DNA of 64,000 nucleotides from contig PWMU01000037.1 in the NCBI GenBank assembly GCA_003558065.1, forward strand, positions 19,473 to 83,472, read 5' to 3'. Below, in pieces: positions 11,828 to 36,210 of the stretch. The stretch is from Opitutia bacterium. GTDB lineage: Bacteria; Verrucomicrobiota; Verrucomicrobiia; Opitutales; T3Sed10-336. Under the pieces are notes generated by a model. It was not told where the DNA came from, searched no databases, and saw nothing but the letters and a program-made list of their open reading frames with translations. Both the position numbers and the translations under genes were made by a program. Position 1 is the first letter of the stretch, and every line of letters starts with the position of its first letter.

Positions 11828-11859
11828 TTTTTGGGCCTGGTACACAAGAGGAGTCGTCG

Positions 11860-18172: not shown

Positions 18173-18391
18173 AAACGCCAACCCGTCCGATAAGAACCGA
18201 TACCGCACGATTCGGAATCCGAAGACCTTTTACGCCGGGATTCAAGGCCCGGACTCTTGCTGTTGGGGGGAGGGCGGCGGAACCCTTGCTCCGCCCGGCC
18301 GTGCGAATGAAGTCTCATGAGCGATGCGGCACCCGATATTTCACGATGAGGTTCGCGGGATCGGAATTTTTCGCGGGCCAACGGTGATTCC

Positions 18392-19513: not shown

Positions 19514-19519
19514 GTCCAG

Positions 19520-21205
19520 TTGCGCCTGCCAATGGGAAGCCGCCAGCAAATCACCGACGGAAACGAAACTCGCGGCGGCTCGCTCGTGTTGCTGCTGCAC
19601 GCCCATCTTCCCTACTGTCGCAAGCCGAAGCATCCGGTAAGCCTGGAGGAAAACTGGTTTTTCGAGGCGCTGACCGAGTGTTACCTCCAACTCGTTCGCG
19701 TGCTGGACCGCCTTGAACGCGACGGGATAACGCCCCGCCTCACCCTCAGCCTTTCACCGACATTGATTTGCCTGCTCGGCGATCAATCCCTTCTCGACCA
19801 GTACCGCCGGCGACTGGCCCTGGCTGAGAAGATTGCCGAGCGCGACGCCCAGTCCGGCGAGTTCCAGGAAGCGGCCGCCCGGCAGGCCCGGTTTTTTGCC
19901 GAAACCCGTCACACCTGGGAGGAGCGGTGCGGCGGCGATCCGCTCGGGGTTTTCCGTGAGTACGCCGAGACGGGAAGGATCGAGCTGGCGACGACGGCGG
20001 CCACCCACGCCTTTCTCCCCGCCTACCAGGCAAGGCCGCACATCGTCGAATCCCAGATCCGGGTGGGAATCGATTGTTTTGAAAAAACCTTCGAGCACCG
20101 CCCCGGTTTTTTCTGGCTTCCGGAATGCGGCTATTTTCCGGGGATCGAAACCATGCTTGAGGCGGCCGGAGTTCGTGCCTTCGGCCTGGAAAGCCACGCG
20201 ATCACCCGCGCGCGCCCCGCGCCGGAACGCGGAGTGCGTTCTCCTTTGCGTTGCCCCAACGGACTTGTAGGATTCGGGCGGGACGAGGCGATTTCCCGGC
20301 TCGTGTGGAGCGCCGCCGAAGGCTATCCGGGCCACCCCGATTACCGGGAGTTTCATCGCGACCGTATCCACGAGCTTCCGGAATCGATCCTCGGTGAATG
20401 GCTGCGGGAAACCGGGGTCCGCCTGCCCGCCGGACTGAAATACTGGCGGGTGACCGGACCGGAACAGGAAAAAGCATTGTACGATGCGCGCGCAGCTGCC
20501 GCACGAGCCCGCGAACACGCGGAGCATTTTCTTGAAGTCGTGCGGCGCGCTGACCGTGACGACGGCGGCAACCCGGACGACGGAATCCGGTTTGCTCCTT
20601 TCGACGCGGAATTGTTCGGGCATTGGTGGTTCGAAGGACCGCTGTGGCTGGAAGAACTCTTTCGGGCTCTTTCCCGGCAGAACGAGCTCGTGCCCGTAAC
20701 CGCGACCGAGGCGGTTGCCGGTTGCCACCGGCCCGCCGAAGGGTGTCCTGCTCCCTCGAGCTGGGGCGACCGCGGGGACAATTCCCACTGGATCAACAGG
20801 GAGACCGACTGGATTTATCCGATCCTTTTCGAAGCCGACCACCGCTTGCGCAAGCTCCTGCAACGCCACGGCGGCGCACCGGGGAACAGCCCGGAGGGAC
20901 GCGCCTTGCGGCAGGCCTGCCGGACTTTCTTGCTCGCACAGGCCTCCGACTGGCCCTTCATGATAAGAGCCGGAACGGCAGCCGACCTCGCCGTCCGGCA
21001 CATGGAAGGGCTGCTGGGCCGCCTGCGGCGGCTACTGGCCGACCTCGAAGACGGTCGGATCGACCGGAAGTTTCTCTCCGAATGTGAAGCGACCGACCGC
21101 GCTTTTCCCGAATTAAAAGTGGATCACTTTACGCCTGCGCGTCATGCTGGTTCCGGATCCCCCGAAAAATCGGCCTCCATTCAACCGCGCCGGCAAACGC
21201 TCTGA
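19520..21205 (+). CDS. GH57-family 1,4-alpha-glucan branching enzyme (DUF1957-containing type)
   Basis: Contains GSLVLLLHAHLPY...EENWFFEALTECYLQLV...LSLSPTLICLL...WLPECGY...FDAELFGHWWFEGPLWL. TTG at 19520 or ATG at 19532 is the start. Confidence 0.85.
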   Translation: MRLPMGSRQQITDGNETRGGSLVLLLHAHLPYCRKPKHPVSLEENWFFEALTECYLQLVRVLDRLERDGITPRLTLSLSPTLICLLGDQSLLDQYRRRLALAEKIAERDAQSGEFQEAAARQARFFAETRHTWEERCGGDPLGVFREYAETGRIELATTAATHAFLPAYQARPHIVESQIRVGIDCFEKTFEHRPGFFWLPECGYFPGIETMLEAAGVRAFGLESHAITRARPAPERGVRSPLRCPNGLVGFGRDEAISRLVWSAAEGYPGHPDYREFHRDRIHELPESILGEWLRETGVRLPAGLKYWRVTGPEQEKALYDARAAAARAREHAEHFLEVVRRADRDDGGNPDDGIRFAPFDAELFGHWWFEGPLWLEELFRALSRQNELVPVTATEAVAGCHRPAEGCPAPSSWGDRGDNSHWINRETDWIYPILFEADHRLRKLLQRHGGAPGNSPEGRALRQACRTFLLAQASDWPFMIRAGTAADLAVRHMEGLLGRLRRLLADLEDGRIDRKFLSECEATDRAFPELKVDHFTPARHAGSGSPEKSASIQPRRQTL

Positions 21206-21211
21206 TAAAGC

Positions 21212-24200
21212 ATGACCAAAGAAATCGCCACTGAAGCGGGGACACGCATGCGGATCGAGCACGTTGAGCGCAAGAACCGATCCTGGGTGAATCTGTCGCT
21301 TTCAAGCCCGGAACCCTGTCACCTGCATTGGGCGCTGAGTGCCTCTCCGGACGGAGAATGGTGCGCCCCCCCGAAATCAATGTGGCCGAAAGGCACGTTG
21401 CCCCAAGGAAAGGCAGCGGTCCAGACACCGTTCCAGGAAAACGGAGACCGGTCCGTCCAGCTACCGGTTTCCTCATCGCCGTCCCTTTCCTACCTCGTTT
21501 TTGTACTGTATTTTCCCGAATCCAAGAAATGGGACAACAACCGGGGCCGGAATTACGCGCACCCGCTCATTGCCGGGGCGCCGTTCGACGTCGCTTCGCT
21601 CCTGGACGAATCCATCGGTGACCGGGAAAAACTCTTCCGCGAAATATTCGAACTGGAGGGAGGTTTCCGGCTCGGCGCAGCCGTAATCAAGAACGGGGAG
21701 GACCGGGAAGTGATCCTGCTGACCGACCTCGCGACACCGGTTAATCTTCACTGGGGCATCGCCGAACGTACTCCGAGGGATTGGCGCTTCCCGCCACCCG
21801 AAATTCGTCCCGCCGGCACAACCTCCTTCGATGAGAAAGCGGCCAACACTCCGTTTGTTCGCGCGGGCGCGGTCAATCGCCTCAACCTCGTTTTCCCGAA
21901 AGACTCGACTCCGGCGGGCCTCCCGTTTGTGCTCCGGGAAATCGACCCGGAACGGTGGCGCAAGAACCGGGGACGCAACTTCTTTATTCCTTTGGCCGAA
22001 CCACGCACATCGGGTGCCGGCTCCTCCGCACTCGCCCGGGAGATCATCGAGGCGGAAACAGGTCCCAACTCGTGGAGCCTCATGCACCGCCACAACCTCT
22101 GCCACGATCTTCTGGACCGGACCGGCGGCAACCCCCATGAGCTCGCGCTCCTGTATGTCTGGCTGCGTTTTTCGGCCTTGCGGCAACTCGACTGGCAGCG
22201 GAATTACAACACGAAACCGCGCGAACTCGCCCACGCCCAGGACCGCCTGACCCGGAGAATGGCCGGGATTTATATCGAATATCCGGATACACAGGAATGG
22301 ATCCGGCTCATGCTGGGATCGGTGGGGCGGGGCGGCGAAGGACAGCAGATCCGGGACGAGATCCTCGCCATCATGCACCGGCATCACATCAAAGAGGCGT
22401 CCGGACATTTCATGGAGGAATGGCACCAGAAGCTTCACAACAACACGACTCCCGACGATGTTGTGATCTGCCGGGCTTTCATCGAATTCCTCAAGAGCGA
22501 CGGCAACCTCGATGTTTTTCATCGGACACTTGAAGCCGACGGCGTGACCCGGGAGAGGCTCGCGAGTTTCGAACGTCCCATCGTATCGCAGCCGGACTTT
22601 GTTCCACATCTTAAGGACGCCCTTATTGCAGACTTTTCCCGTTTCCTCAAAATGCTCAGGTCAGTCCATTCCGGAACCGATCTCGATCTGGCGATCGAGA
22701 ATGCCGTCCCCCTCATCGGCGACGACACCCGCGGACGACTGCACCGCCTCCGCGACGCGCTGCGAAACCCCGACGCCCCTCTCCTCGAACGCGCCTCCGC
22801 GCTCACCGACGTACGCGGAGCCGTGACCGGGCAACTGCGGCATGAATCGGACGCCGGCCGCGCGCGCGAGTTGCTTTACCTGGACATCGCTCTGGAGGAG
22901 GCCCTGCGCATGGCGGTTGAAAGGGACGCCCACGATTCCACGGACGAAAGAACCGGGATCACGCTCCTCGAACGGGTGCTTCGGAATGTTGCCTGGAGTC
23001 ACAACGACGACGAACTGCCGCTTTGCGAGAGCGATTGGGCCCACTGGGAAGAAAGCCGGGAGTCCGAATCCGTCCTCGCCCTGAAACGAATGGCGCTGTT
23101 CGACCGGCTTCGCCGGGCGGTTACGAACATCATGGATCGTCTTTACCAAAAGGTTCAGCCGCTTGCGGGAGAGCTCGGCGAAGCCTTCGGCGCGGCGCCG
23201 TGGACCGTCAATCTGTTCGGCGAAGCGGTCGTTCGGGGACGTCCGATCTTTGCGCTGTCATCGCTGATTCGACACCTTGACCCGATCCTCCGCGAAAAGG
23301 CCGGGATCGGCGGCTGGCAGATCGTCAGCCGGGGGGAAGCTTACGGAAAACTGGAGGTGGTACAGTCGCTTCAATCCCTGCAGGGAAAAGTCTTTAAGGA
23401 AAAAACCATCGTTGTCGCCGATACCGTCTCCGGTGAAGAGGAGCCTCCGCCAGGCGTGACCGGCATCATCACTTCCCGGCCGATCGACCTGGTTTCGCAT
23501 GTGGCTGTCCGCGCGCGCAATGCCCCGGTGCTTTTCGCCATCTGCTACGAGGCGGCGATCCTGGAGCGCTTGAAAAGCCTCGCCGGGAAACAGGTCTACC
23601 TCGAAGCCAGACCCTCCGGCACCGTCGAGTTCCGGGAATCTCAGAAAGGAGAAAGGACCGGACCGTCCAACGCCGGCGGAGAGTCGACTCCGTTGTCGAT
23701 CGCCAAACCCGAACTCACCCGGGAACCCATTACCCGGGAGGAATTCCGGGAAGGCCTGGTGGGCGGCAAAGCCCAGCAGCTTCGCGCACTGCGGGACCGC
23801 CTTCCCGATTGGGTCCATGTTCCCGCATCGGCGGCGCTTCCCTTCGGTGTCTTCGAAGCGACGCTCGAAGCCCCGGCCAACAAAGACGTTCTGGCGGAAT
23901 ATAAAAAGCTCCGCGCGCGGGCGGACAAGGATGCCGAGCAGGCGCTTCCCGCCCTTCGCAAAGCCCTTCTCAAACTGGAGCCGGCCGAGGGCCTCGCCGG
24001 AAAACTCTCGGCAACCCTGACGCGCGCGGGGATTTCCGCACCGCCGGAAAGTGATTGGGAAAAAGTCTGGCATGGGATCAAACAAGTCTGGGCCTCGAAA
24101 TGGAATGATCGTGCCTTCTTCAGTCGCAGGGCCCGCTCCATCTCCCACGAAGAGATCCATATGGCAGTCCTGATACAGGAGCTGGTTCCGGTCGACTACG

Positions 24201-24688
24201 CCTTCGTCCTGCACACAGCCGATCCCTTCACGGGCAGTGATCGGGACCTGTACGGGGAACTGGTCAACGGTCTGGGCGAAACGCTTGTCAGCAACTACCC
24301 GGGCACGGCACTGAGCTTTCGCTCGCCGAAAAAGCAACCGAAACCCAAGGTACTCGCCTATTCCAGCAAAAGCCTTGCCCTCGCCGGAAAAGGATGGATC
24401 TTCCGGTCCGATTCGAACGCGGAGGACCTTTCCGGTTATGCAGGAGCCGGGTTGTACGAAAGCATCGTGGTCCCGCCGCCCGAAACGGTACGGCTCCGGT
24501 ACGCCCAGGACCGGCTGATGACCGACGCCGCTTTTTGCGAATCCCTGCTCAAGCGCATCACCGAGCTCGGAAGCGCGGTTGAATCGGCCTTCGACGGCGT
24601 ACCTCAGGACATCGAGGGCGGGTATGTGAACGAGCGCTTCCACGTCGTCCAAAGCCGCCCCCAGGTAGGCACGACGCCCGCGCCCTGA
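21212..24688 (+). CDS. alpha-glucan, water dikinase (GWD1/R1-type) homologue with two N-terminal CBM45-like modules
   Basis: Central block LYVWLRFSALRQLDWQRNYNTKPRELAHAQDRLT...GRGGEGQQIRDEILAIMHRH...MEEWHQKLHNNTTPDDVVICRAFIEF...LRSVHSGTDLDLAIE. The phosphohistidine loop is SGEEEPPPGVTGIITSRPIDLVSHVAVRARNAPVLFAICYE (His codon 23498-23500). There is a C-terminal PPDK_N-type nucleotide-binding domain (GGKAQQL...WASKWNDRAF...MAVLIQE...DIEG). Two LHW[GA]...W..PP...FVL....W..N.G.N[FY] modules lie at about 21251-21565 and 21659-21994. Confidence 0.85.
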   Translation: MTKEIATEAGTRMRIEHVERKNRSWVNLSLSSPEPCHLHWALSASPDGEWCAPPKSMWPKGTLPQGKAAVQTPFQENGDRSVQLPVSSSPSLSYLVFVLYFPESKKWDNNRGRNYAHPLIAGAPFDVASLLDESIGDREKLFREIFELEGGFRLGAAVIKNGEDREVILLTDLATPVNLHWGIAERTPRDWRFPPPEIRPAGTTSFDEKAANTPFVRAGAVNRLNLVFPKDSTPAGLPFVLREIDPERWRKNRGRNFFIPLAEPRTSGAGSSALAREIIEAETGPNSWSLMHRHNLCHDLLDRTGGNPHELALLYVWLRFSALRQLDWQRNYNTKPRELAHAQDRLTRRMAGIYIEYPDTQEWIRLMLGSVGRGGEGQQIRDEILAIMHRHHIKEASGHFMEEWHQKLHNNTTPDDVVICRAFIEFLKSDGNLDVFHRTLEADGVTRERLASFERPIVSQPDFVPHLKDALIADFSRFLKMLRSVHSGTDLDLAIENAVPLIGDDTRGRLHRLRDALRNPDAPLLERASALTDVRGAVTGQLRHESDAGRARELLYLDIALEEALRMAVERDAHDSTDERTGITLLERVLRNVAWSHNDDELPLCESDWAHWEESRESESVLALKRMALFDRLRRAVTNIMDRLYQKVQPLAGELGEAFGAAPWTVNLFGEAVVRGRPIFALSSLIRHLDPILREKAGIGGWQIVSRGEAYGKLEVVQSLQSLQGKVFKEKTIVVADTVSGEEEPPPGVTGIITSRPIDLVSHVAVRARNAPVLFAICYEAAILERLKSLAGKQVYLEARPSGTVEFRESQKGERTGPSNAGGESTPLSIAKPELTREPITREEFREGLVGGKAQQLRALRDRLPDWVHVPASAALPFGVFEATLEAPANKDVLAEYKKLRARADKDAEQALPALRKALLKLEPAEGLAGKLSATLTRAGISAPPESDWEKVWHGIKQVWASKWNDRAFFSRRARSISHEEIHMAVLIQELVPVDYAFVLHTADPFTGSDRDLYGELVNGLGETLVSNYPGTALSFRSPKKQPKPKVLAYSSKSLALAGKGWIFRSDSNAEDLSGYAGAGLYESIVVPPPETVRLRYAQDRLMTDAAFCESLLKRITELGSAVESAFDGVPQDIEGGYVNERFHVVQSRPQVGTTPAP

Positions 24689-24701
24689 AACGGCTGTTGA
24701 G

Positions 24702-27700
24702 ATGGCCTCCGTTTGTCACCGACCTTTCGATCTCACCACTATGCACACTCCCGGCTTCAGGATCCGAATCGGCAACCAGACATCCTTTGCTTCAGGCAAC
24801 CTGCTGGACCCGTTCAAATTCGCCCTCGAACAGGGCTTCGACGCGTTTGAATGGTTTCCCGACAAGAAGGAGTCCGGCGAAGGGTGGGAAGTGAACGACA
24901 TCGACGATGAAATGAGATTCTGGATACGCCAGCGCGCCGAACGGCATAAGATCACCCTCACGGTTCACGCGCCCGCTTCCCTGAATTACCTCGATCCAGC
25001 CCAACCCGACCTTGTTGAAGAAACCCTGGAATTCGCCCGCGGGATCCGCGCCTCCCTCCTGAACCTTCATCTGCAATCCGAAGAAGGCATCGAACGCTGC
25101 CTCAAGGGGCTGGAACCGTGGATCCGCGGCACGGCGAAGCACGGACTTCAAATCGCCCTCGAAAACACTCCCATGACCCCTCCCGGGGACTTCAATGCTT
25201 TTTTCGAAACTCTGATTGCCCGCTCCGATTGGCCCACCGGGCACGTCGGCATGTGTTTCGACCTGGGACACGCCAACCTCTGTGCACGCACTCGGAACGA
25301 TTACCTCAAGTTCCTGGACCTCCTTGCCGCGGAAGTGCCGATCAAGCACTTGCACCTGCACGAAAACCACGGGGAAGGGGACCATCACCTCTGCCTCTTT
25401 ACCGGTCCCTCGCAATCGGATGAATCCGGGATCCGGGGTATGATCGAAAGACTGCGGGCACGGGAGTTCGACGGATGCGCTATCCTGGAGCAGTGGCCCG
25501 ACCCTCCTGAACTTCTGGCCGGAGCCCGGGACCGCCTGCGGGCTCTTTTTCCGGAACCGGCTTCCGGCGGCCAACGGGAATCTCCCGACGACACCGATAA
25601 GCCCTCCATCTCAAATTCGGAAGAACCCTTTCTGAATGCACTGATGGAAGCCCACCGCAATACCCGGAGCTGGAGGGAAAAGCTCCAACGGATCCACGCG
25701 TTTCTGACCGATCCGGATAATCCCCCCGACGCCGACGCGCTGGCCTACACGGCCGTCTACCTCGAGTGGATTCACACGGGACTCATCACCTGCGAAGAGG
25801 ACTCGCGCCACTTCCGCCCCCACCATCACGCGCAGATTGCGGGCGAAATTCACGAGTGCATCCGGAAACTCATGACGCAGGAGAACGCGCTGCCCATTCG
25901 CAGGATCTATCCGTCCCTTCCGTCGTTCCATCCCGACTTCCAGTGTGCCGAACCGCTGACCCGCATCCGGGACATCGCACACAGGAACGACCTTCCCAAA
26001 GAGCTCAAAGAGGAGATCAAGCACACCCTCCAGAACAAACTTCATCGCTGTGCGGGACCGGAAGACCTGAAAACCTCGGAAAAACTCCTGGGACGGATAT
26101 CGGGCTCCGATGCCGATTATCCCGAAACTTTCGTGGACGAGTTCCGACGCTTTCACGACGAACTCAAGGAGTTCTTCAACGCCCAGTCGCTCGACCTCCG
26201 TCTGGAAAGGCTCGCCGAATCATTCCCGGACAGCCGAATCGTCAAATCGATCCGCACCTTTCTACGGCGCAAATCAACATCCGAAGACCCGGGCGGAAGC
26301 AGGAATATCCCGGCCCTCTTGAAGGAGCTCACGCGCCTGCGCGCGACCCTGTCCCGCGAGGCCGATCGGCGCAATGACTCGGAATCCCAGGAATGCCGGA
26401 TGGCGGAAATAGCCCTTGAGGACTACGCCTTCGCCCTCTTGAGCGAATGGATCAATCAGTTCGAATCCAACTCCGAAGCGGAACACATGACCGCGCTCAC
26501 GGCCCTGTCTCTGACCCTCGAAAACCTGGAACTCGATCTCATCCTTCCCCGGGAATGCCGCGCAATCAGGGCCGAAAACGATGCGCTTCGGGACTGCACT
26601 GACCAGGATAATCCGGAATTCCCGATGCGCCTGGCAGCCAACATGCAGCGCGGGCAGCGCCTCTTTGAAACCTTCACCGATCACTCACTCGGTCACTTCA
26701 CCGACAAAGCCGAACGGCTTGCCCGGGCGTTGGAAATCCCCAAAGAGGAATTGATCCTTTTCGTGGAAGCAACCGTGCGCAGGCACTTGATCTTTCAGTA
26801 CTCCAAACTGGTCACCTCTTTGCTCGGATCCATTCGCAACGATGCCGATCTCCCCTCCTGGGAGACCCTGGTTTCCGGAAAGGCGACCGGTCGAGTGATC
26901 CGGACGCGGAGGCTGACCGACCTCCCCGCGACACTTCCGGAACCGACTCTGGCGCTGGTGGAAGCCGCGGACGGTGAAGAGATCATTCCGGACGGAGTTC
27001 GTGCCGTGATCCTCCGTCACGACGTCCCGCACCTGTCCCATCTCGGCGTCCGCGCGCGCCAGGCCCGAATCGTTTTTGTCGCCTGCTCCGAAACGGAAGA
27101 GTTCGACTCGCTGGCCGAGCAGGTCGGCCGGAAAGTGGAACTGGAGGCGACCCCCGAAAGCCTGGAGGCAAGGGCGGTGTCTTCTGCAGCGACATCGGAC
27201 GCCCCCGTTGCGAAGCGGAAGCTCTTCGAGCTTCCGAAGGTTTCTATGGAACCGGGCGACCGCGTGCTCCCGCTCAGCGGAATCACCTCCGAAACCGCTG
27301 GGCCGAAAGCGGATTCGCTCCGGCGGCTGGAGGAACTGGCCGTTTCGGGAAAAGCCGAGTTCCATACGCCGCCCGCCGCGGTGCTGCCGTTCGGAATCCT
27401 GAACGGCCTGCTTTCCGCGGGCGACAAGTCGTCTGGAGCGCCCGGCACCGACGCTGCGAGCGGAAAAATCCGAGAACGGATTGCCGCACTGTCGCTGCCG
27501 GAGTCCCTGGTTTCCGAAATGCGATCCGTGTTCGGCAGGAACCCGCGCCTTGTGGTTCGGTCAAGTTCGAATCTCGAAGACCTGGAAACCTTTGCGGCAG
27601 CCGGACTGTATGAATCCGTCGTAAACGTATCAATGCGATCGCTACGCGATGCCGTCCGAAGAGTCTGGGCTTCCCTTTGGAGCGAGCGTGCGGTCGCCGA

Positions 27701-28181
27701 GCGACGCCGTCTTCAGATTCCCGAGTCAGGGGCCCACATGGCGGTCATCCTGCAATTGATGGTGGAGGCCGACCTATCTTTTTTCATGCACACTGCGAGC
27801 CCGTTTTCGGAATCCTCCCGGGAAGGCTATGTGGAACTCGCGGCCGGAATGGGCGGGTCTCTGGCCTCGGCCGCCGAGGCCGGACGGCCGTATCGGGCGA
27901 TCTTGGACAAGCCCTCGGGAACAGGAAAAATCATCGCGTTCGCCAGCTTCAGTCACGCCCTTCGTCCCGGCAGGGACGGGGAGCTGACGGCGAAAACCCT
28001 GGACTATTCGCGGATCCCTTTTTCGCGGGACCCGGACTTTCGTCAAAGAATCCTCGACCGGCTCGCCACCCTTGCAGGCGCCGTGGAAAAGGCCTTTGGG
28101 CGCCCGCAGGACATCGAGGGAACGATCCGCAACGGCGAAATCTCACTCGTCCAATCCCGTCCCCAGCACGAAGCTCCATGA
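24702..28181 (+). CDS. Fusion protein: xylose-isomerase-like (AP_endonuc_2) TIM barrel plus a phosphoglucan, water dikinase (PWD/GWD3-type) homologue
   Basis: The N-terminal ~285 aa carry VHAP, ALEN, FDLGHANL, HLHLHENHGEGDHH and ILEQW (TIM-barrel metal-ligand pattern). Next come LTRIRDIAHRNDLPKELKEEIKHTLQNKLHRCAGPEDL and the phosphohistidine loop DGEEIIPDGVRAVILRHDVPHLSHLGVRARQARIVFVAC (His codon 27039-27041). A C-terminal PPDK_N-type domain follows (SSNLEDL...AGLYES...WASLWSERA...MAVILQ...DIEG). Confidence 0.85.
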   Translation: MASVCHRPFDLTTMHTPGFRIRIGNQTSFASGNLLDPFKFALEQGFDAFEWFPDKKESGEGWEVNDIDDEMRFWIRQRAERHKITLTVHAPASLNYLDPAQPDLVEETLEFARGIRASLLNLHLQSEEGIERCLKGLEPWIRGTAKHGLQIALENTPMTPPGDFNAFFETLIARSDWPTGHVGMCFDLGHANLCARTRNDYLKFLDLLAAEVPIKHLHLHENHGEGDHHLCLFTGPSQSDESGIRGMIERLRAREFDGCAILEQWPDPPELLAGARDRLRALFPEPASGGQRESPDDTDKPSISNSEEPFLNALMEAHRNTRSWREKLQRIHAFLTDPDNPPDADALAYTAVYLEWIHTGLITCEEDSRHFRPHHHAQIAGEIHECIRKLMTQENALPIRRIYPSLPSFHPDFQCAEPLTRIRDIAHRNDLPKELKEEIKHTLQNKLHRCAGPEDLKTSEKLLGRISGSDADYPETFVDEFRRFHDELKEFFNAQSLDLRLERLAESFPDSRIVKSIRTFLRRKSTSEDPGGSRNIPALLKELTRLRATLSREADRRNDSESQECRMAEIALEDYAFALLSEWINQFESNSEAEHMTALTALSLTLENLELDLILPRECRAIRAENDALRDCTDQDNPEFPMRLAANMQRGQRLFETFTDHSLGHFTDKAERLARALEIPKEELILFVEATVRRHLIFQYSKLVTSLLGSIRNDADLPSWETLVSGKATGRVIRTRRLTDLPATLPEPTLALVEAADGEEIIPDGVRAVILRHDVPHLSHLGVRARQARIVFVACSETEEFDSLAEQVGRKVELEATPESLEARAVSSAATSDAPVAKRKLFELPKVSMEPGDRVLPLSGITSETAGPKADSLRRLEELAVSGKAEFHTPPAAVLPFGILNGLLSAGDKSSGAPGTDAASGKIRERIAALSLPESLVSEMRSVFGRNPRLVVRSSSNLEDLETFAAAGLYESVVNVSMRSLRDAVRRVWASLWSERAVAERRRLQIPESGAHMAVILQLMVEADLSFFMHTASPFSESSREGYVELAAGMGGSLASAAEAGRPYRAILDKPSGTGKIIAFASFSHALRPGRDGELTAKTLDYSRIPFSRDPDFRQRILDRLATLAGAVEKAFGRPQDIEGTIRNGEISLVQSRPQHEAP

Positions 28182-29200
28182 ACGCCTCGCCGCACATCCT
28201 CGGGCTTTTTCAGAAGCGCCTGGCCGGCGATGACGCCCTTCTCGAACTGGCCCGGCTCCGCTTCGAGGAAGTCGCGATGGACCCGGATATACACGCCGGG
28301 TCTCCGGAGGATTTCCTGCATCAGCACTCCTTCCGCCCTGAAAACGCTTGCACCGTTGTCGTTCACTTTCCCAGGAACTGGAGCCTGCTCAATGCCGACG
28401 ATCACGAACAGATCCGCCGTATGGCCCGTTGTGCGGCAGGGAAAGCGCACGGGTTCGTTATCCATGATCTCAAGGAGATGGAGCGTGCGCCTGAATTAGT
28501 GGTTCGTCAACTCCGGAAACTCGCCGCACTACTCCGGGAGATACCGGAATCACCCGTGTTGTTCGTCGAATATGCGGTCGGCATCGACCCCGGGCGATTT
28601 GTGGAAACCCTTCAACGGGTGAAGGAGCACCGTGAAATCAGCGCCTGCATCGACATCGGCCACATCGGTATCCGGCAGGCGCGCCGGGCCTATGCCGAGC
28701 GATATCCGGGCGAAGATCCCTGTGCCCTCACTCCCGAATCGAGGGAACTTCCCGACCGAATCGATGCCCTCATCGATTCGGCTCGGATCGGTCTGCGGAG
28801 CACCGTCGAGGTCATCCGCGAGACCGCCGTATCCGGAAAACCCCTCCACTTTCATCTCCACGACGGTCACCCGCTGGCAAAGAGTTCCTACGGGGTTCCG
28901 GACCACCGTGGATTCCTTGAGCCCATCCCGATTCCTTTTGTCTGTAACGGCCGCCGCAGCCTCCCGCCCCTTTTTGGTCCGGCCGGGCTCCGAAAGATCG
29001 TCGACGCCGCCCGCACCCGCGCCGGCGCCGGATACCTTACGTTTACGTTCGAAATCCACGAAACCCACGGCCGCCTTCCCCTCGGAAACGCGGAGCCGCT
29101 TTTCGGCAATTGGAACGACACCGGAAACGCCGAACAAATGAATCACTGGCTTTCCAGTCTTCAGAATCACGCTGAACTTCTGCGAGCCGGGTGGGAGTAA
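28178..29200 (+). CDS. Stand-alone xylose-isomerase-like TIM-barrel protein (sugar-phosphate isomerase/epimerase superfamily)
   Basis: ATG at 28178 overlaps the stop of the preceding gene (ATGA). Motifs VVVHFP, FVEYA, CIDIGHIG, LHFHLHDGHP....VPDH and FTFEIH are present. The long ORF 27677..29200 is an upstream read-through in the same frame. Confidence 0.7.
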   Translation: MNASPHILGLFQKRLAGDDALLELARLRFEEVAMDPDIHAGSPEDFLHQHSFRPENACTVVVHFPRNWSLLNADDHEQIRRMARCAAGKAHGFVIHDLKEMERAPELVVRQLRKLAALLREIPESPVLFVEYAVGIDPGRFVETLQRVKEHREISACIDIGHIGIRQARRAYAERYPGEDPCALTPESRELPDRIDALIDSARIGLRSTVEVIRETAVSGKPLHFHLHDGHPLAKSSYGVPDHRGFLEPIPIPFVCNGRRSLPPLFGPAGLRKIVDAARTRAGAGYLTFTFEIHETHGRLPLGNAEPLFGNWNDTGNAEQMNHWLSSLQNHAELLRAGWE

Positions 29201-29348
29201 GGGCGGAACTCTTTAACCTGGAAAGACCGTCCAACATTGAAGGTTCAAAGCCGGACGTTGAGCGTTCTTCCCCAACTTCCGTCACTCACCCCCAACCGTT
29301 TTCCCGCATCCCCTGGATTCCCTGGCCCGCATTCCTTTACCCGGTTCA

Positions 29349-29376
29349 CACCGATCACCGATTACGGATCACGGAT
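29349..29376. repeat. Heptanucleotide tandem array caccgat|caccgat|tacggat|cacggat
   Basis: Four units with strict 7-nt periodicity. The unit CACGGAT is shared with the array at 14170-14218. It lies in the 243-nt gap before the debranching-enzyme gene. Confidence 0.7.
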
Positions 29377-29443
29377 AAGCAAAAACTTTTTTCATCCTCG
29401 TCTTACGAACGGGTTCGTGGCAAGTAGTACTTCAGCTAACACT

Positions 29444-31891
29444 ATGTCCGGAACACCTACTGAAATCACACACGCCTACTGGCTGGCACCTGGATTGGGG
29501 TGCGTATTTCTGCACAAGGACTGGAGCGAAGAAGGCCTGCCTCCCATTGTTCCCGCCTCGAACGGCCTGCGCCTGAAAAACCTGCGACCGGCTCCCGAAG
29601 ATTTTATCGGACGATTCTGCGGCTATTATCAACGTGGAGATGGAACCGTCGTTTTCTGCCAGGAAGCCGAGCGTCACCCGCAGACCGACTTCGAATGCAC
29701 ACCGGTACGGGTGGCCGGTTCGTTCAACGACTGGGGTCGGGACGGCACCGAAGACGATTGGATTCTCGAACCCCGGGAAACCGAGGACGGGCGCCTTCTC
29801 TGGGAACGGGCCGTTCCGCTCGAACGTTTGGGCGAGGAGGAAGCTCAATACCGCTTCGTCTCTTCGGAGTGGCATTGGCTCAGACCCCTGGACTGTGCGC
29901 CCAACCTGGTTTGTGACGATGCGGGGATCACCAACTACCACTTCAACGCCCGGCGCAGCCAGGACCACGCGTTCTTCTTCAACGTCGACGGGGGGCGGGG
30001 AATGGACGGCAAGCATTACCTGACGTGCCGTCGGCCCCAAGACCATCGTGACGTGCTGATTGTTCCGGGCCTCTCCTTTTACGATTTGTCCACCGACCTT
30101 CCTCTCGGGGCACGGATTGAACGAAAGAAAACCGTCTTCCGCGTATTCGCTCCGAGGGCACGCAAAGTATGGATTGAGCTGGTCGGGACCCCTGATGCCA
30201 AAACAGGGAAAAGGCATTCGATGAGTTTGCTCGACGACCAGCTCACCTGGGAAGTGCGGCTTTGGGGAAACCACCACGGCGGCTATTACTATCTGATTGT
30301 CGAAGGGGAAAACGACGGGATTACGACTGCATTCGAAGGCGACCGGCGCCTGCTCGATCCCTGGGCGCTCGCCACAGCGGGCCCTTACGGACCCGGAATC
30401 GTCGTTGACACCGGACGTCTTCCACGCCGCGAACCAGTCGCTTCGTTTCATCCGCCGCATCCACGGGACCTCGTTATCCTCGAAGGCCATGTGAGGGATC
30501 TGACCGCCCACGCCCCCATCGCCCTTCCGGACGAACAGCGGGATGGTTTCCGCGGACTTCAGAAATGGCTGGAAACCGACGGTAATTACGTTCAAGAGCT
30601 CGGCGTCAATGCCCTGGAGCTTCAGCCCGTTCACCAGTTCGACAGCGCGACACGGGAGGAATACCACTGGGGTTACATGGCAACCAACTTCTTTTCGCCC
30701 TGCTGCCATTATGCCGGAGATCCGGCCAAGGCTTCACAAATCGAAGAATTCCGGGATCTCGTCGCCGCCTGCCATCGTATGGGGTTGGCGGTAATCATCG
30801 ACGTCGTTTACAATCATGTCGGAGAGCCTCCGTTTCTCGCTTTCATCGACAAACAGTACTATTTTCACGTCGAGGACGACGGAGAGCTGACCAACTGGAG
30901 CGGCACGGGCAATACGCTCCGGGCGGAGTCCGCCATGTCCCGCCGCCTGATCATCGAGAGCCTGATTCATTTCATCGAAACCTACGACGTCGACGGCTTT
31001 CGCTTCGATCTCGCCGAACTGCTCTCGCTCGAGGCCCTCAAGGAGATCGAGGACGCTCTCAAATCAGTCAAGGAAACGATTATTCTCATCGCGGAGCCCT
31101 GGAGTTTCCGCGGAAACATCGCCTGGGAACTCCGGAACACGGGATTCTCATTCTGGAACGATGGGTTCCGTGAATTCGTGCCCTCCTATCTGCGGGGCGA
31201 AGGCGACGCCGGGGGACTCTCGTACTTCATGAAAGGCTGCCTTGACCACCTCTCGGCCTGGCCTTCCCAGAGCATCAATTACGTGGAGTCGCATGACGAC
31301 CGGTGCTGGATCGACAAGATCACCGAGAATCCGGAACACAACGGCTCGGATCCAACGGAAGCCGACATTCACCGCACCCACCTCCTGGTGGCGATCCTGA
31401 TGTGCTCGATCGGCACCCCTATGTTGTCGGCCGGGCAGGATTTTCTCCGATCAAAGGGCGGGCGCAACAACACCTACCTTGAAGGCGAAGTCAATGCGCT
31501 CGACTATGGAAGACTGGAACGATTCGCAGCGTCCCACTCCTATTTCAAACAGTGGATCGCATTCCGCAACTCCGATTGGGGCGCGTTATTGCGTCTTTCC
31601 GACCGCCCGTCCGACAACTACGTTCGCCTTTTTCCGGTCGACGGAGTTTCGGCCGCGGCCCTCATGTTCAACGCGGATCGCAGCCGGGGAAACGCTCAAC
31701 TGCTTTTCGGCATCAATCCGCATCCGGACCCGGTCACTGTGCCCCTCAACGATTTCGAGCCCGATCGCTGGCTGGAAGTCGCCGGCAGGGAGAGTTTCAA
31801 TTTCCACGGTCTGCGGAACGGGCGTCTCAAGAAAGGCGAATGCCGGCTCGAACTCGGACCGCTCGACTGCGGTCTCTGGATGAGGGAATAG
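29444..31891 (+). CDS. GH13 pullulanase-type (type I) debranching enzyme with N-terminal CBM48-like modules
   Basis: Contains VAGSFNDWG (AMPK-beta/CBM48-like), TVFRVFAPRARKVWIEL, ELGVNALELQPVH, HWGYMATNFF, VIIDVVYNHV, DGFRFDLAELL, IAEPWS and YVESHDD (GH13 regions I-IV). The start is probably ATG 29444 rather than TTG 29237. Confidence 0.85.
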   Translation: MSGTPTEITHAYWLAPGLGCVFLHKDWSEEGLPPIVPASNGLRLKNLRPAPEDFIGRFCGYYQRGDGTVVFCQEAERHPQTDFECTPVRVAGSFNDWGRDGTEDDWILEPRETEDGRLLWERAVPLERLGEEEAQYRFVSSEWHWLRPLDCAPNLVCDDAGITNYHFNARRSQDHAFFFNVDGGRGMDGKHYLTCRRPQDHRDVLIVPGLSFYDLSTDLPLGARIERKKTVFRVFAPRARKVWIELVGTPDAKTGKRHSMSLLDDQLTWEVRLWGNHHGGYYYLIVEGENDGITTAFEGDRRLLDPWALATAGPYGPGIVVDTGRLPRREPVASFHPPHPRDLVILEGHVRDLTAHAPIALPDEQRDGFRGLQKWLETDGNYVQELGVNALELQPVHQFDSATREEYHWGYMATNFFSPCCHYAGDPAKASQIEEFRDLVAACHRMGLAVIIDVVYNHVGEPPFLAFIDKQYYFHVEDDGELTNWSGTGNTLRAESAMSRRLIIESLIHFIETYDVDGFRFDLAELLSLEALKEIEDALKSVKETIILIAEPWSFRGNIAWELRNTGFSFWNDGFREFVPSYLRGEGDAGGLSYFMKGCLDHLSAWPSQSINYVESHDDRCWIDKITENPEHNGSDPTEADIHRTHLLVAILMCSIGTPMLSAGQDFLRSKGGRNNTYLEGEVNALDYGRLERFAASHSYFKQWIAFRNSDWGALLRLSDRPSDNYVRLFPVDGVSAAALMFNADRSRGNAQLLFGINPHPDPVTVPLNDFEPDRWLEVAGRESFNFHGLRNGRLKKGECRLELGPLDCGLWMRE

Positions 31892-33606: not shown

Positions 33607-34520
33607 TCGAAACGTTGTCGCGGGTTGAGCAGGACCTGGCCGATGTCCACCAGGAGGTTGAAGAGGAGGATCATGGCCGCGAACAGCACCACGACCCCGA
33701 GGACGAGGGTGTAGTCGCGGTTGAAGGCGGCGTTGACGAATTCGCGTCCCAGCCCGGGGATGTGGAAAACGGTTTCCACAACGAAGGAGCCGCTGAGCAG
33801 ACCGGCGGCTGCGGGACCGAGAAATGCGAGGGCGGGGAGGATGCCGGGCCGGAGGGCGTGCTTGGCGAGGACTTTGCCCCGCGGCAATCCCTTGGCAAGC
33901 GCGGTGCGGATGAAATCCTGCCCGATCACTTCCCGCATGCCCCCGCGGGTCAGGCGGGCGATGTAGGCGGCGTAGAAGAGCCCGAGTGTCAGTGCCGGGA
34001 GGACGCGGTCGCCGGCGGTGTTCCAGCCGGTGGCATTGAACCAGCCGAGCCAGAGCGAAAAAACAAGCACCAGGAGCGGCCCCAGCACGAAGGTGGGCAG
34101 GCAGATGCCGATCATGGCTCCGCCCATCGGCAGCGAATCCAGCCAGGAATCGGGACGGACCATGGAAACGACCCCGGCGCCGATTCCGACCAGCAGCGCC
34201 ACCAGCAAGCCCCACAGGCCGAGTTCGAGCGAGATCGGCAGGTGGTCGCGAATGATCTCATTCACGGTGCGGGTCGGGTAGTGGTACGAAGGGCCGAGGT
34301 CCCCCTGTACGAGATTCCCGAGATAGCTCGTGTACTGTAGGAACAGGGGCCGGTCGAGGCCGTAGTGGGCTTCCATTCGCGCGAGGGTGGCGGCCGGGAT
34401 GTCGACCTCGGCGCTGAAGGGGCCGCCCGGGGCGAGGCGCAGCAGGAAGAAGCAGGCTGTAACGACGAGAAAGAGGACCGGAAGCGCCTCCAGGAAGCGA
34501 CGTGCGATGTAAATCAGCAT
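33603..34520 (-). CDS. Peptide ABC transporter permease (DppB/OppB type)
   Basis: Contains MLIYIARRFLEALPVLFLVVTACFFLLRLAPGGP...YGLDRPLFLQY...FIRTALAKGLPRGKVLAKHALR. Confidence 0.9.
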   Translation of the reverse strand: MLIYIARRFLEALPVLFLVVTACFFLLRLAPGGPFSAEVDIPAATLARMEAHYGLDRPLFLQYTSYLGNLVQGDLGPSYHYPTRTVNEIIRDHLPISLELGLWGLLVALLVGIGAGVVSMVRPDSWLDSLPMGGAMIGICLPTFVLGPLLVLVFSLWLGWFNATGWNTAGDRVLPALTLGLFYAAYIARLTRGGMREVIGQDFIRTALAKGLPRGKVLAKHALRPGILPALAFLGPAAAGLLSGSFVVETVFHIPGLGREFVNAAFNRDYTLVLGVVVLFAAMILLFNLLVDIGQVLLNPRQRFE

Positions 34521-34524
34521 GGGA

Positions 34525-36177
34525 TCACTCTTCGGCGGCCAACCTCACGTCCTTGTACGTGCGGTAGCCGATCGGGGTCGGCCGCCAGTTTTGAACGGCG
34601 GGATGCTTGAGGTACATGCGGTTGTAAAAGAACAGGGGAATGACCGGGGCCTCATTGACAAGGAGGGTTTCGGCTTCCCGTATCCGTTGCCGGCGCGCCC
34701 CGGTGTCGCGGGTGCCGACGATTTCATTGAGCAGCGCGTCGTAGTCGTCGTTTGCCCAGCCGGTCCGGTTGTTTCCGCCGCCGCCGGCCATTGTGTTGAG
34801 AAAGTTGTACGGATCGAGGTAGTCGCCGATCCATCCGGAACGCGCGATGTGGTACTCAAGCCGGTTGGTGCGGTCGAGGTAGACCTGCCACTCGGCATTC
34901 TCGAGAGAAAGGTTCAGCCCGAGATCGCGCCGCCACATTTCCTGGGCAAGCTGCGCGATCGCGCTGTGTTCGTCGGAGGTATTGTAGAGGATCCGCATCG
35001 AGGGAAAGCCTTCGCCCGAGGGGTACCCGGCTTCGCTCAACAGTTCGCGGGCGCGGTCGAGGTCCGGTTCGATCACCGGTTCCGGTTCGTAATCCGGAAC
35101 CCCCGGCGGAACGAAGGAATACGCGGCCGGCCGCTCGCCGCCGTAGATGTTGTCGACGATCATTTCACGATCGAGCGCGAGCGAGAGGGCGAGCCGGACC
35201 CGGGGATCGTCGAGGGGCGGGACGGTGACGTTGAGCCGGAAGTAATAGGTGCCGAAAAAGTCGTCGGTCATGAAAACCTCCGGAAGTTGGTCGCGGTAAT
35301 AGGGTATGCGTTCCGGCGGGACGGGATCCGTGATATGGAGTTGGCCCGAGCGGAAAGCCCGCTCGCCGACCGGGGGGTCCAGCGGGTAGAAGTGGGTGCC
35401 GTTAAGGTGGATCCGGCCGGCGTCCCAGTAATCGGGATTCCGCTTAACCTCGATCCTGCGTCCGGTCGCCCAGCGTTCCAGGGTGAACGGGCCGTTGCCG
35501 ACGAAGTTCTCCGGCCGGATCCAGCGGGTGTGGGGGTCGTCGATAGCACCGTGCGCGAGAATGGTGTCCGGGTGAACCGGATACCAGGTGTTGTGACTGA
35601 GGAGGCTGAGGAAGGTGGGCACCGGCTGATGGAGGGTGATCTCGAGAGTGTGGTCGTCAATGGCGCGCGCGCCGACCTCGCCGAAATCCTCGATTTCGCC
35701 TTCGTTGAAAGCGCGGGCTCCCTTCATCGGGAAGAGCATGTAGGCGTACTGGGAGGCGAGGTTGGGCGAGAGGATGCGTTCGAAGCCGAACAGAAAATCG
35801 CGGGCCGTGACCGGATCGCCGTTCGACCAGGTCGCGTCCTCGCGCAGGTAAAACGTGTACACGGTTCCGTCGCCGGACACCTCCCATTCGCGCGCGGCCG
35901 CCGGCGCGGGGCTCATGTCCTCGGGATCGACCGCGGTCAGTCCTTCGAGAAGCGCGGCGACGACGTGAAACTCGGGGAGGCCGGTGACGGTGTGCGGATC
36001 GAGACTCCGGATGTCGGTTGCGTTGTTGATGTGCAGGACCTGCTCGCGGATGCCGGATTCCACGCGGTTTTCGGAGGGACCGCATCCGGCGGCGAGTCCG
36101 ATCAGGCAAAGGGAAAGCACCGAACCCGTCGGGGAGGCAAAGGCGGAACGCAGGGAGTGGTTCGTCATGGCACCCAT
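34525..36177 (-). CDS. Peptide ABC transporter substrate-binding lipoprotein (family 5)
   Basis: Lipobox LIGLAAGC. Contains LLEGLTAVDPED...YTFYLREDATWSNGDPVTARDF...KRNPDYWD. Confidence 0.9.
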   Translation of the reverse strand: MGAMTNHSLRSAFASPTGSVLSLCLIGLAAGCGPSENRVESGIREQVLHINNATDIRSLDPHTVTGLPEFHVVAALLEGLTAVDPEDMSPAPAAAREWEVSGDGTVYTFYLREDATWSNGDPVTARDFLFGFERILSPNLASQYAYMLFPMKGARAFNEGEIEDFGEVGARAIDDHTLEITLHQPVPTFLSLLSHNTWYPVHPDTILAHGAIDDPHTRWIRPENFVGNGPFTLERWATGRRIEVKRNPDYWDAGRIHLNGTHFYPLDPPVGERAFRSGQLHITDPVPPERIPYYRDQLPEVFMTDDFFGTYYFRLNVTVPPLDDPRVRLALSLALDREMIVDNIYGGERPAAYSFVPPGVPDYEPEPVIEPDLDRARELLSEAGYPSGEGFPSMRILYNTSDEHSAIAQLAQEMWRRDLGLNLSLENAEWQVYLDRTNRLEYHIARSGWIGDYLDPYNFLNTMAGGGGNNRTGWANDDYDALLNEIVGTRDTGARRQRIREAETLLVNEAPVIPLFFYNRMYLKHPAVQNWRPTPIGYRTYKDVRLAAEE

Positions 36178-36210
36178 TTTTTGGAGAAACCGGGGCCGAA
36201 GGCAAAACCT

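Follow-up and report, generated by a model that had tools for sequence, protein, structure and literature searches.

In this study, we describe a 340-aa ORF that encodes an uncharacterised, predicted metal-binding TIM-barrel enzyme, whose putative active site resembles those of phosphate-ester-cleaving enzymes. It is encoded next to, or fused to, a bacterial starch-type glucan dikinase in 50 of 80 loci, and is therefore the best candidate for the phosphatase that bacterial glucan phosphorylation appears to lack. The ORF was found in a 64,000-nucleotide stretch of an Opitutia bacterium genome (contig PWMU01000037.1), hereafter called the window. A preliminary description, made from the sequence alone, had noted a stand-alone TIM barrel starting inside the stop codon of a PWD-like gene, had seen no CX5R phosphatase in or near the operon, and had proposed from context that one or both barrels supply the missing dephosphorylation step or another phospho-sugar step. 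The observation was confirmed, and every motif listed in it (H63-F-P, E131-Y132, D159-I-G-H162, H224-F-H-L-H-D-G-H231, D242-H243 and F-E292-I-H294) was found in the translation. The proposal itself is partly supported by the data presented here. The relevant features of the window are as follows.

16361–21205 (+), glucan synthesis genes of the same operon by Pfam: GT5 glycogen/starch synthase (16361–18172), a DUF4912 protein (18392–19513) and a GH57 branching enzyme (19520–21205).
21212–24688 (+), GWD1-like dikinase with Ig_N_CWD1 modules, a phosphohistidine domain and a PPDK_N domain (Pfam).
24702–28181 (+), the PWD-like dikinase, 1159 aa, with an N-terminal barrel (barrel 1, window 24702–25600; AP_endonuc_2, residues 38–280), a GWD1-type phosphohistidine domain (719–829) and a PPDK_N ATP-binding domain (917–1157).
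28178–28181 (+), ATGA start/stop overlap with the upstream dikinase gene, which suggests translational coupling.
28178–29200 (+), the stand-alone TIM-barrel gene, 340 aa, a candidate metal-dependent phosphoglucan phosphoesterase.
28364–28366 (+), codon for His63 at the end of strand 61–63 (HFP/HLP motif), proposed metal-site-1 ligand, equivalent to Endo IV His69 and CbiR His65.
28463–28468 (+), codons for His96-Asp97, just after strand 92–95; His96 is the proposed second site-1 ligand.
28568–28573 (+), codons for Glu131-Tyr132 at the end of strand 127–131, invariant; Glu131 is the proposed ligand bridging sites 1 and 2.
28646–28663 (+), C157-I-D159-I-G-H162 (CxDxGH motif), invariant and also present in Endo IV, CbiR and barrel 1; Asp159 is the proposed site-2 ligand and His162 the proposed site-3 ligand.
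28847–28870 (+), H224-F-H226-L-H228-D229-G-H231, a His-rich strand and loop, proposed to supply the site-2 His; it contains the HLH motif shared with CbiR.
28901–28906 (+), Asp242-His243 (the DH of the DHLS motif), proposed site-3 ligands, equivalent to Endo IV Asp229/His231 and CbiR Asp203/His204.
29051–29059 (+), Glu292-Ile-His294, just after strand 287–291; Glu292 is the proposed site-2 ligand.
29237–31891 (+), downstream ORF carrying CBM48 and GH13 (debranching-type enzyme, Pfam).

We first examined the gene and its junction. The ATG (28178–28180) overlaps the TGA stop (28179–28181) of the upstream gene, and the ORF runs to the stop at 29198–29200. The frame stays open upstream to 27677, but homologues align only from residue 2–10 onward, so the ATG is the real start. 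The tight junction recurs in other genomes. Among 50 related loci, 10 have the same ATGA overlap, 33 overlap or have a gap of 26 nt or less, and 2 are in-frame fusions. The only terminator-like hit between the listed start of the downstream CBM48/GH13 ORF and the end of the barrel gene does not exceed what shuffled sequence gives (3 found, 1.8 expected).

The protein has no Pfam hit above cut-off. Its PF01261 score is 13.4 bits (E 0.064) against a gathering cut-off of 31.1 bits, while 12 of 39 family members hit this model at E ≤ 0.1 (best 8.2e-5). Its membership in the xylose-isomerase-like / AP endonuclease 2 superfamily therefore rests on the predicted fold and on profile-profile comparison, not on the Pfam model. 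The AlphaFold (AF2) model is a confident TIM barrel (pLDDT 92.3, pTM 0.91). VIA-align superposed it on ketose 3-epimerases, xylose isomerases and the Endo IV-type AsfvAP (PDB 6ki3) with Z 18.5–19.5 and rmsd 2.7–3.5 Å over 232–258 residues, and Foldseek gave the same picture (E about 3e-6). AsfvAP (Z 19.3) has the highest identity in the list, 16% over 251 aligned residues. However, as all of these are tied near Z 19, the fold search could not discriminate phosphoesterase from isomerase relatives. The family has at least 843 relatives, all named hypothetical, in 251 clusters at 50% identity. A profile search of all PDB sequences gave no hit even at E 10, and the ESM Atlas returned only 'hypothetical protein' clusters and one PF01261 cluster.

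Next, we analysed the putative active site. Across 39 cluster representatives that go down to 28% identity, H63, H96, E131, D159, H162, H224, H228, D242, H243, E292 and H294 are invariant, and H226, D229 and H231 are at least 90% conserved. The core ligands of the superfamily (Glu, Asp, His, Glu) correspond to E131, D159, H226 and E292, which lie at strand ends and align to the Endo IV core columns. An Endo IV alignment that we built from 20 genomes has exactly H,H,E,D,H,H,D,H,E invariant, and the order and spacing match those of the present family. In the column mapping, 8 of the 9 three-metal ligand columns were matched by the family and 9 of 9 by barrel 1. The exception is His63, which is offset by three columns from the first Endo IV His in a low-confidence stretch, although it is aligned to the corresponding His of CbiR and barrel 1. 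Only about 2 of the 18 other PF01261 proteins in this genome carry most of the set, though many of those alignments are of low probability. The clustering of the ligands in three dimensions is inferred from their strand-end positions.

The closest characterised relative by profile is CbiR, the cobamide-remodelling phosphodiesterase of Akkermansia muciniphila (NF041277), which hydrolyses a sugar-O-phosphate ester, is EDTA-sensitive and requires its conserved His/Asp/Glu residues for activity, as shown by mutagenesis (mBio 2020, PMC7733943). It is essentially the only NCBIfam model hit, and the only NCBIfam family that either barrel hits within the superfamily: an NCBIfam scan of the stand-alone protein at E ≤ 1 returned only CbiR (E 1.1e-4, residues 54–167 only), 14 of 39 family members hit it, and barrel 1 hits it at 1.4e-8. 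The score of the stand-alone protein, 21.8 bits, is far below the equivalog cut-off of 105 bits. A CbiR alignment has the same ligand order and shares the HLP, CxDxGH, HLH and DHLS motifs and a final Glu. The CbiR invariants H65, H105, E145, D168, H171, H194, H196, D203, H204 and E234 correspond in the profile alignment to H63, H96, E131, D159, H162, H226, H228, D242, H243 and E292. On the other hand, the present family is about 90 residues longer, with a long helix inserted between strands (residues 191–217), a beta-hairpin (250–262) and a C-terminal helix carrying the NAExMNxW motif. It is also not found in cobamide loci; the neighbours are glucan enzymes and kinases in all 80 loci examined by tblastn with the proteins of the operon and, for a few loci, by Pfam.

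Profile-profile comparison of the family gave 94.2% probability with CbiR (E 1e-7, 213 columns), 86.5% with Endo IV (240 columns) and 97.5% with barrel 1 (E 7e-12, 255 columns). A more diverse alignment of the family was needed for this; the less diverse one gave only partial local alignments, and global mode gave a meaningless alignment. The description of the stand-alone protein as a paralogue of the fused barrel is therefore only partly right. BLASTP between the two barrels is not significant (E 0.39), which rejects a close paralogue, and only profile methods relate them. Barrel 1 passes the PF01261 threshold (78.8 bits) and lacks the family-specific insertions, but it carries the same ligand pattern, matches CbiR at 97% probability, and both barrels are found fused to the same dikinase body.

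We then examined the genomic context in 80 loci. In 50 of them, from at least eight phyla, namely Verrucomicrobiota, Thermodesulfobacteriota, Nitrospirota, Acidobacteriota, Planctomycetota, Pseudomonadota, Chloroflexota and Myxococcota-labelled MAGs, the gene directly follows the PWD-like dikinase or is fused to it. Natural fusions of the dikinase with this domain exist in at least 11 separate 50%-identity clusters and in one locus (L053), and another locus (L060) is a triple fusion of barrel 1, dikinase and this domain. Other loci keep GH13, DUF4912 and GH57 neighbours. This partnership with GWD/PWD-type dikinases is genetic linkage only. Co-occurrence within the phylum was uninformative, as the GWD phosphohistidine domain and this family were each found only in the window's own genome among 151 sampled Verrucomicrobiota genomes, both not being found in the other 150.

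A genome-wide search for DSP-type phosphatases had been named beforehand as a test of the proposal. The DSPc, Y_phosphatase, Y_phosphatase3 and PTPlike_phytase models found nothing in the 4.13-Mb, 97%-complete genome. A six-frame search for [HV]CxxGxx[RK][ST] gave 10 hits, none of them in this gene. We read them as off-frame translations, as the one examined in full is an off-frame ORF overlapped by longer ORFs and none was matched by the Pfam PTP/DSP models. With these models alone, an HAD, alkaline, histidine or LMW-PTP (PF01451) phosphatase is not excluded as the real glucan phosphatase. In other carrier genomes, DSPc was present above the Pfam cut-off in 3 of 5 (a fourth has a weak match below cut-off), but as open frames of 157–374 aa located far from or off the locus, which neither supports nor refutes the hypothesis. 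The stand-alone protein itself resembles the glucan phosphatases SEX4, LSF2 and laforin (PF00782) only in its proposed role. Its predicted fold is a TIM barrel, it has no CX5R motif, and no PTP-superfamily family was among its Pfam hits up to E 10. No CBM (CBM48 or CBM20) was recognised by Pfam, while the conserved aromatic residues F11, Y132, F246, F309, W312 and W324 could form a binding surface.

Taken together, we favour, with moderate confidence, the reading that the gene encodes a cytoplasmic, metal-dependent phosphoesterase from a previously undescribed branch of the superfamily. By analogy with Endonuclease IV, up to three metal ions would be held at the C-terminal ends of the barrel strands by His63, His96 and Glu131 (site 1), by Glu131, Asp159, a His of the 224–228 cluster and Glu292 (site 2), and by His162, Asp242 and His243 (site 3), and would activate water for attack on a sugar-O-phosphate ester. 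The substrate is inferred to be the phosphate that the neighbouring GWD-like and PWD-like dikinases put on the storage alpha-glucan at C6 and/or C3, or on phospho-oligosaccharides released from it. The enzyme would then do the job that the Cys-based dual-specificity phosphatases SEX4, LSF2 and laforin do in eukaryotes, closing a bacterial cycle of reversible glucan phosphorylation, and barrel 1 may be a second phosphoesterase. The Endo IV/CbiR-type ligand set of both barrels, which in this superfamily is known in the phosphoesterases and is not the minimal four-ligand isomerase/epimerase site, supports this view. Our data establish the fold (as a confident model), the conserved ligand pattern, the synteny and fusions, and the lack of DSP/PTP phosphatases, whereas metal binding, hydrolytic chemistry, the substrate and the position specificity are inferred, and an isomerase, epimerase or diesterase role is not excluded. 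An Endo IV-like site does not prove hydrolysis, as B. subtilis IolI is an isomerase with an Endo IV-like fold (a reference title cited in PMC7733943). Moreover, a phosphatase fused to the very dikinase whose product it removes would run a futile cycle unless it is regulated or acts on a different position or a different substrate state.

Among the alternatives, a sugar or sugar-phosphate isomerase, epimerase or dehydratase, like most members of the superfamily, is unlikely but survives best. It would act on glucose 6-phosphate, glucose 3-phosphate or phospho-oligosaccharides released from the phosphorylated glucan, or on phosphorylated residues in the chain, without removing the phosphate. The tied fold matches and the conserved Glu/Asp/His/Glu core, which these enzymes use, are consistent with this, and a processing enzyme would make sense because C3-phosphorylated glucose has no standard catabolic route. 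However, no NCBIfam isomerase or epimerase model is hit, and the extra invariant residues His63, His96, His162, Asp242 and His243 belong to the Endo IV/CbiR pattern. Association with three unrelated kinase types (see below) also fits removal of a phosphate better than one particular sugar rearrangement.

Less likely, the barrel is a phosphodiesterase that cleaves inter-chain glucan-phosphate-glucan bridges, a cyclic phosphate or a glucan-phosphate-X adduct, as its nearest characterised relatives by profile, CbiR and Endo IV, are primarily phosphodiesterases. But GWD and PWD make phosphomonoesters (PMC13666283), and no enzyme that would form a diester is evident in the operon. Endo IV also removes 3′-phosphate monoesters from a sugar in a polymer, which is chemically analogous to the reaction proposed here, so the site chemistry does not favour diesters over monoesters. 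It is doubtful that the barrel is merely an accessory or regulatory subunit of the dikinase, binding glucan in place of a CBM or acting on the phosphohistidine or pyrophosphoryl intermediate. The very tight coupling, the repeated fusion and the absence of a Pfam-recognisable CBM from the PWD-like dikinase are compatible with such a role, but the strict conservation of about eleven metal-ligand-type residues over wide divergence indicates catalysis, the family also occurs in five genomes with no GWD-type domain at all, and plant dikinases need no such partner. A divergent Endonuclease IV-type DNA repair nuclease lying in the operon by chance is very unlikely, since despite the Endo IV-like ligand set and the absence of a TIGR00587 (nfo) match in the genome at E ≤ 1e-20, the protein does not hit the nfo model, its profile similarity to Endo IV is weaker than to CbiR and barrel 1, its adjacency or fusion to glucan dikinases is conserved across phyla, and many bacteria lack nfo and use exonuclease III.

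Reversible phosphorylation of storage glucan is treated as a eukaryotic trait, with GWD/PWD and SEX4/LSF2 in plants and laforin in animals. A 2026 review states that prokaryotes lack laforin and that it is unknown how bacterial glycogen phosphorylation would be mediated (PMC13666283), and our literature searches found no paper on a bacterial GWD/PWD-linked TIM barrel. This locus and its many relatives would supply both halves of a bacterial cycle, with the erasing half done by a different fold and chemistry. This would provide a new enzyme class for removing phosphate from starch or glycogen, relevant to starch processing and to understanding Lafora-type phosphate control, a clue to where plant glucan dikinases came from, and a function for a large family with no Pfam assignment. 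A bolder and unlikely, though not excluded, possibility is that bacteria from many phyla run a complete cycle with two plant-type dikinases and two three-metal TIM-barrel phosphatases of a new class, unrelated to the DSPs, in which the fused and the stand-alone barrels divide the C6 and C3 positions between them. In that case, the same family would have been re-used in Actinomycetota as the eraser for at least one other, unrelated kinase (CotH), making it a general kinase-coupled sugar-phosphate eraser.

Finally, we looked at the loci where no dikinase is present. In one derived clade (SH-aLRT 99) the gene sits beside a CotH kinase instead, and in one Chloroflexi locus a small Pkinase/APH-like kinase overlaps the end of the gene, which makes three unrelated kinase folds as partners. 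The CotH-linked clade lives in genomes with no GWD-type domain, so at least those members act on something other than a GWD product, which suggests that the role of the family extends beyond alpha-glucan dikinases. The conserved unknown protein next to CotH is not a third barrel, as it has no similarity to barrel 1; it gives only weak beta-propeller 'Phytase-like' hits.

The ORF under study lies in a co-directional operon, in which we identified the following genes.

16361-18172, a GT5 glycogen/starch synthase
18392-19513, a DUF4912 protein
19520-21205, a GH57 branching enzyme
21212-24688, a GWD1-like dikinase (Ig_N_CWD1, GWD1_pHisD and PPDK_N)
24702-28181, a second dikinase whose N-terminus is an AP_endonuc_2 barrel (barrel 1, residues 38-280; pHisD at 719-829; PPDK_N at 917-1157)
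28178-29200, the ORF in question
29237-31891, a CBM48/GH13 enzyme

The ATG at 28178 overlaps the TGA of the dikinase gene, giving ATGA at 28178-28181, and the ORF encodes a protein of 340 aa (hereafter P0001). The observation made in the preliminary description is correct, as each of the motifs that it had listed (HFP, E-Y, DIGH, HFHLHDGH, DH and FEIH) is present in the translation. The frame stays open upstream to 27677; however, homologues align only from residue 2-10 onward, and therefore the ATG is the start. The one terminator-like hit between the end of this gene and the GH13 catalytic region does not exceed what is obtained with shuffled sequence (3 found, 1.8 expected). Just downstream of the operon region, a 928-aa ORF (34519-37305, + strand) gave no Pfam or NCBIfam hit at the thresholds used.

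P0001 has no Pfam hit above threshold (AP_endonuc_2 scores 13.4 bits against a cut-off of 31.1). Its only NCBIfam hit is CbiR, the cobamide-remodelling phosphodiesterase (E 1.1e-4). The family is large and anonymous. At least 843 proteins were found at E <= 1e-3 among the 8000 candidates scored, most of them at about 45% identity and 340-370 aa in length, and every source name was a variant of 'hypothetical protein'. The exhaustive search yielded 251 clusters at 50% identity. No sequence-level match to any PDB chain was observed, even at E 10, and the ESM Atlas returned only unnamed clusters.

Next, we modelled the protein by AlphaFold2 using a 30-sequence alignment, and obtained a confident model (pLDDT 92.3, pTM 0.91) of an eight-stranded beta/alpha barrel. 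Foldseek and VIA-align place this model in the xylose-isomerase-like TIM-barrel superfamily, with Z of 18.5-19.5 over 232-258 residues to ketose 3-epimerases, xylose isomerases, AsbF and the Endo IV-type AP endonuclease AsfvAP. These matches are tied, and so the fold alone says nothing about the chemistry.

We then analysed the conservation of the predicted active site. Across 39 cluster representatives down to 28% identity, the invariant residues are H63, H96, E131, D159, H162, H224, H228, D242, H243, E292 and H294, plus G270, while H226, D229 and H231 are at least 90% conserved. Cys157 and Cys182 are also conserved in this family; CbiR is oxygen-sensitive. By DSSP on the model, all the invariant and highly conserved positions of the putative site lie at or just after the C-terminal ends of barrel strands; the clustering of these residues in 3D is inferred from this and not from measured distances. 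For comparison, an Endonuclease IV alignment was built from 20 Verrucomicrobiota genomes and a CbiR alignment from 5. The Endo IV alignment has exactly H, H, E, D, H, H, D, H, E invariant, which is the known three-zinc ligand set (Hosfield et al. 1999, cited within PMC7733943). CbiR has the same order, with the motifs HLP, CxDxGH, HLH, DHLS and a final Glu, and all of these recur in P0001. The diverse alignment of the family was then used in profile-profile comparisons.

Profile-profile comparison of the family (compared with; probability; E-value; columns)
CbiR; 94.2%; 1e-7; 213
Endo IV; 86.5%; 5e-6; 240
Fused barrel 1; 97.5%; 7e-12; 255

Reading the residues that fall on the nine Endo IV ligand columns gave 8 of 9 for this family and 9 of 9 for barrel 1. 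In case of this family, His63 lies three residues from the first column, in a low-confidence stretch. As a rough control, we mapped the 18 other PF01261 proteins of the same genome in the same way. Only about two of them carry most of the set, and the rest typically have Asn or other residues at the extra positions, although many of those alignments are of low probability. The two exceptions are encoded at 11753-12451 (- strand) of contig C92 and at 46782-47585 (+ strand) of contig C101. They carry most of the set although the genome has no match to the TIGR00587 nfo model, and they may be further phosphoesterase-type barrels or divergent AP endonucleases. The epimerases and isomerases of the superfamily use only the Glu/Asp/His/Glu core, whereas the additional His/His and His/Asp/His ligands belong to the phosphoesterase members. 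CbiR is an experimentally proven, EDTA-sensitive phosphodiesterase, whose conserved His/Asp/Glu residues are needed for activity (PMC7733943).

To assess the genomic context, one genome per GTDB species was scanned. This gave 268 relatives, and 80 loci were searched by tblastn with the proteins of the operon. We observed the following. In 50 loci, a PWD-like dikinase ends within 350 nt upstream of the homologue or is fused to it. These loci come from Verrucomicrobiota, Thermodesulfobacteriota, Nitrospirota, Acidobacteriota, Planctomycetota (Scalindua), Pseudomonadota, Chloroflexota and Myxococcota-labelled MAGs. Cultured carriers of the family include a Luteolibacter marinus isolate (L028) and Desulfobacterota bacterium M19 (L016). 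Ten of the 50 have the identical ATGA overlap, and 33 overlap or are 26 nt or less apart. The GWD-like gene and barrel 1 are usually present but not always; the constant pair is the PWD-like dikinase plus this barrel. A small Desulfobacterales group has no dikinase in the 5-6 kb of upstream sequence available, and keeps the order barrel, GH13, DUF4912, GH57. In another Desulfobacterales locus (L055, 6092-10996), the tblastn hits run GWD-like dikinase, then a barrel 1 match (9129-9878), then the barrel homologue, with no separate PWD-like body, and barrel 1 may be a stand-alone gene here. The barrel gene on a 2.4-kb contig labelled Promethearchaeota archaeon (L039) is nearly identical to those of two Thermodesulfobacteriota MAGs (L046 and L050; tree branch lengths about 0.01-0.02). 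This short contig is probably mis-binned and not an archaeal copy.

Natural fusions confirm the link. At least eleven separate 50%-identity clusters are proteins of 1100-1330 aa having the dikinase body followed by this domain, and eight of them begin exactly where barrel 1 would end, so they lack barrel 1. Locus L053 (6950-11026) encodes such a fusion in a single ORF of 1358 aa, and locus L060 (3277-7785) encodes a 1502-aa triple fusion of barrel 1, PWD-like dikinase and this domain. The three modules are therefore shuffled between separate and fused states. Many loci, for example L012 (7206-8579) and L026 (6547-7887), also have a short (about 450 aa) GH13 enzyme with a hDGE_amylase-like match immediately after the barrel. 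One cluster representative, P0124, continues from the barrel into this GH13 domain, and another protein, P0032, has a C-terminal extension that may be the start of one. These could be gene-calling read-throughs or real fusions.

The family also occurs in a second context. Seventeen loci, from Actinomycetota, one Dormibacterota and one Acidobacteriota, have no dikinase within 10 kb (L063, 11007-13440, and L015, L037, L041, L061, L062, L064-L066, L068, L069, L072-L074, L077, L078 and L080). In these loci, the barrel sits beside a CotH-family kinase (PF08757, E 1e-48). In 15 of the 17, there is also a conserved protein of about 300-370 aa that gives only weak beta-propeller 'Phytase-like' hits, and one database protein (P0142, 54% identity) fuses this unknown to the barrel. 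In a quick maximum-likelihood tree, these 17 form a single clade (SH-aLRT 99) that falls among dikinase-linked members, although the root is only a midpoint. In one locus from a Chloroflexi MAG (L076, 9866-11864), the barrel homologue is overlapped at its end by a 294-aa Pkinase/APH/RIO-like kinase gene, and a DUF711 gene lies upstream. Five dikinase-less carrier genomes that were checked whole have no GWD phosphohistidine domain at all; four of them belong to the CotH-linked clade and the fifth is that of this Chloroflexi locus. The family is therefore found with three unrelated kinase folds, and the simplest common denominator is that it handles a kinase product.

Next, we searched for a canonical phosphatase. 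The genome carrying the operon (4.13 Mb, 197 contigs, 97% complete) has no match to DSPc, Y_phosphatase, Y_phosphatase3 or PTPlike_phytase, and it has one copy of the present family. A six-frame search for the PTP loop gave ten hits. We read them as off-frame translations, as the one examined in full lies in an off-frame ORF overlapped by longer ORFs, and none was picked up by the Pfam PTP/DSP models. Among five other carrier genomes, DSP domains occur above the Pfam cut-off in three, in open frames of 157-374 aa. They lie on another contig or, judged by coordinates on what appears to be the same contig, about 190 kb from the locus, and they decide nothing for or against the proposed role.

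The best-supported reading of these data is that P0001 is a metal-dependent phosphoesterase that would remove dikinase-installed phosphate from the storage glucan or from its phospho-oligosaccharide fragments, as a non-orthologous replacement of SEX4, LSF2 and laforin. Barrel 1 may be a second such enzyme. The proposal of the preliminary description, made from context alone, that one or both barrels provide the dephosphorylation step or another phospho-sugar processing step is thus partly supported. The predicted fold, the conserved ligand pattern, the gene linkage and fusions and the lack of DSP/PTP matches come from the analyses, while metal binding, hydrolytic activity and the substrate are inferred, no activity data being in existence. 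We consider this reading about as likely as not. The core ligands are shared with isomerases and epimerases, and at least one isomerase (IolI) has an Endo IV-like fold. A phosphatase fused to its own kinase implies a futile cycle, unless it is regulated or is specific for another position or for the soluble state. Moreover, the CotH-linked clade must act on something other than a GWD product. Among the alternatives, processing by an isomerase or epimerase is the strongest, though unlikely; a diesterase is less likely still, and a non-catalytic or regulatory partner is improbable. A role in DNA repair is very improbable.

The closest characterised relatives are CbiR and Endonuclease IV. P0001 fails both family models and lies in a different genomic context, so it would work like them but is not a member of either family. 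In the proposed role, it is functionally analogous to the DSP glucan phosphatases but structurally unrelated. In the literature that we searched, we found no paper describing a bacterial GWD/PWD-linked TIM barrel. A September 2026 review states that prokaryotes lack laforin, and that the machinery for any bacterial glycogen phosphorylation is unknown (PMC13666283). The function, erasing of glucan phosphate, is already known; what is new is its proposed assignment to a new enzyme family and mechanism, in bacteria.

Finally, we examined the distribution of the module within the phylum. Among 150 other sampled Verrucomicrobiota genomes, neither the GWD phosphohistidine domain nor this family was found, so that the GWD1-type domain (dikinase genes at 21212-28181) was found in only 1 of the 151, the genome carrying the operon. 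The closest locus is from an Opitutales MAG (L001), with 64% identity for the barrel and the same gene order. The module is therefore patchy and probably laterally acquired in this lineage.
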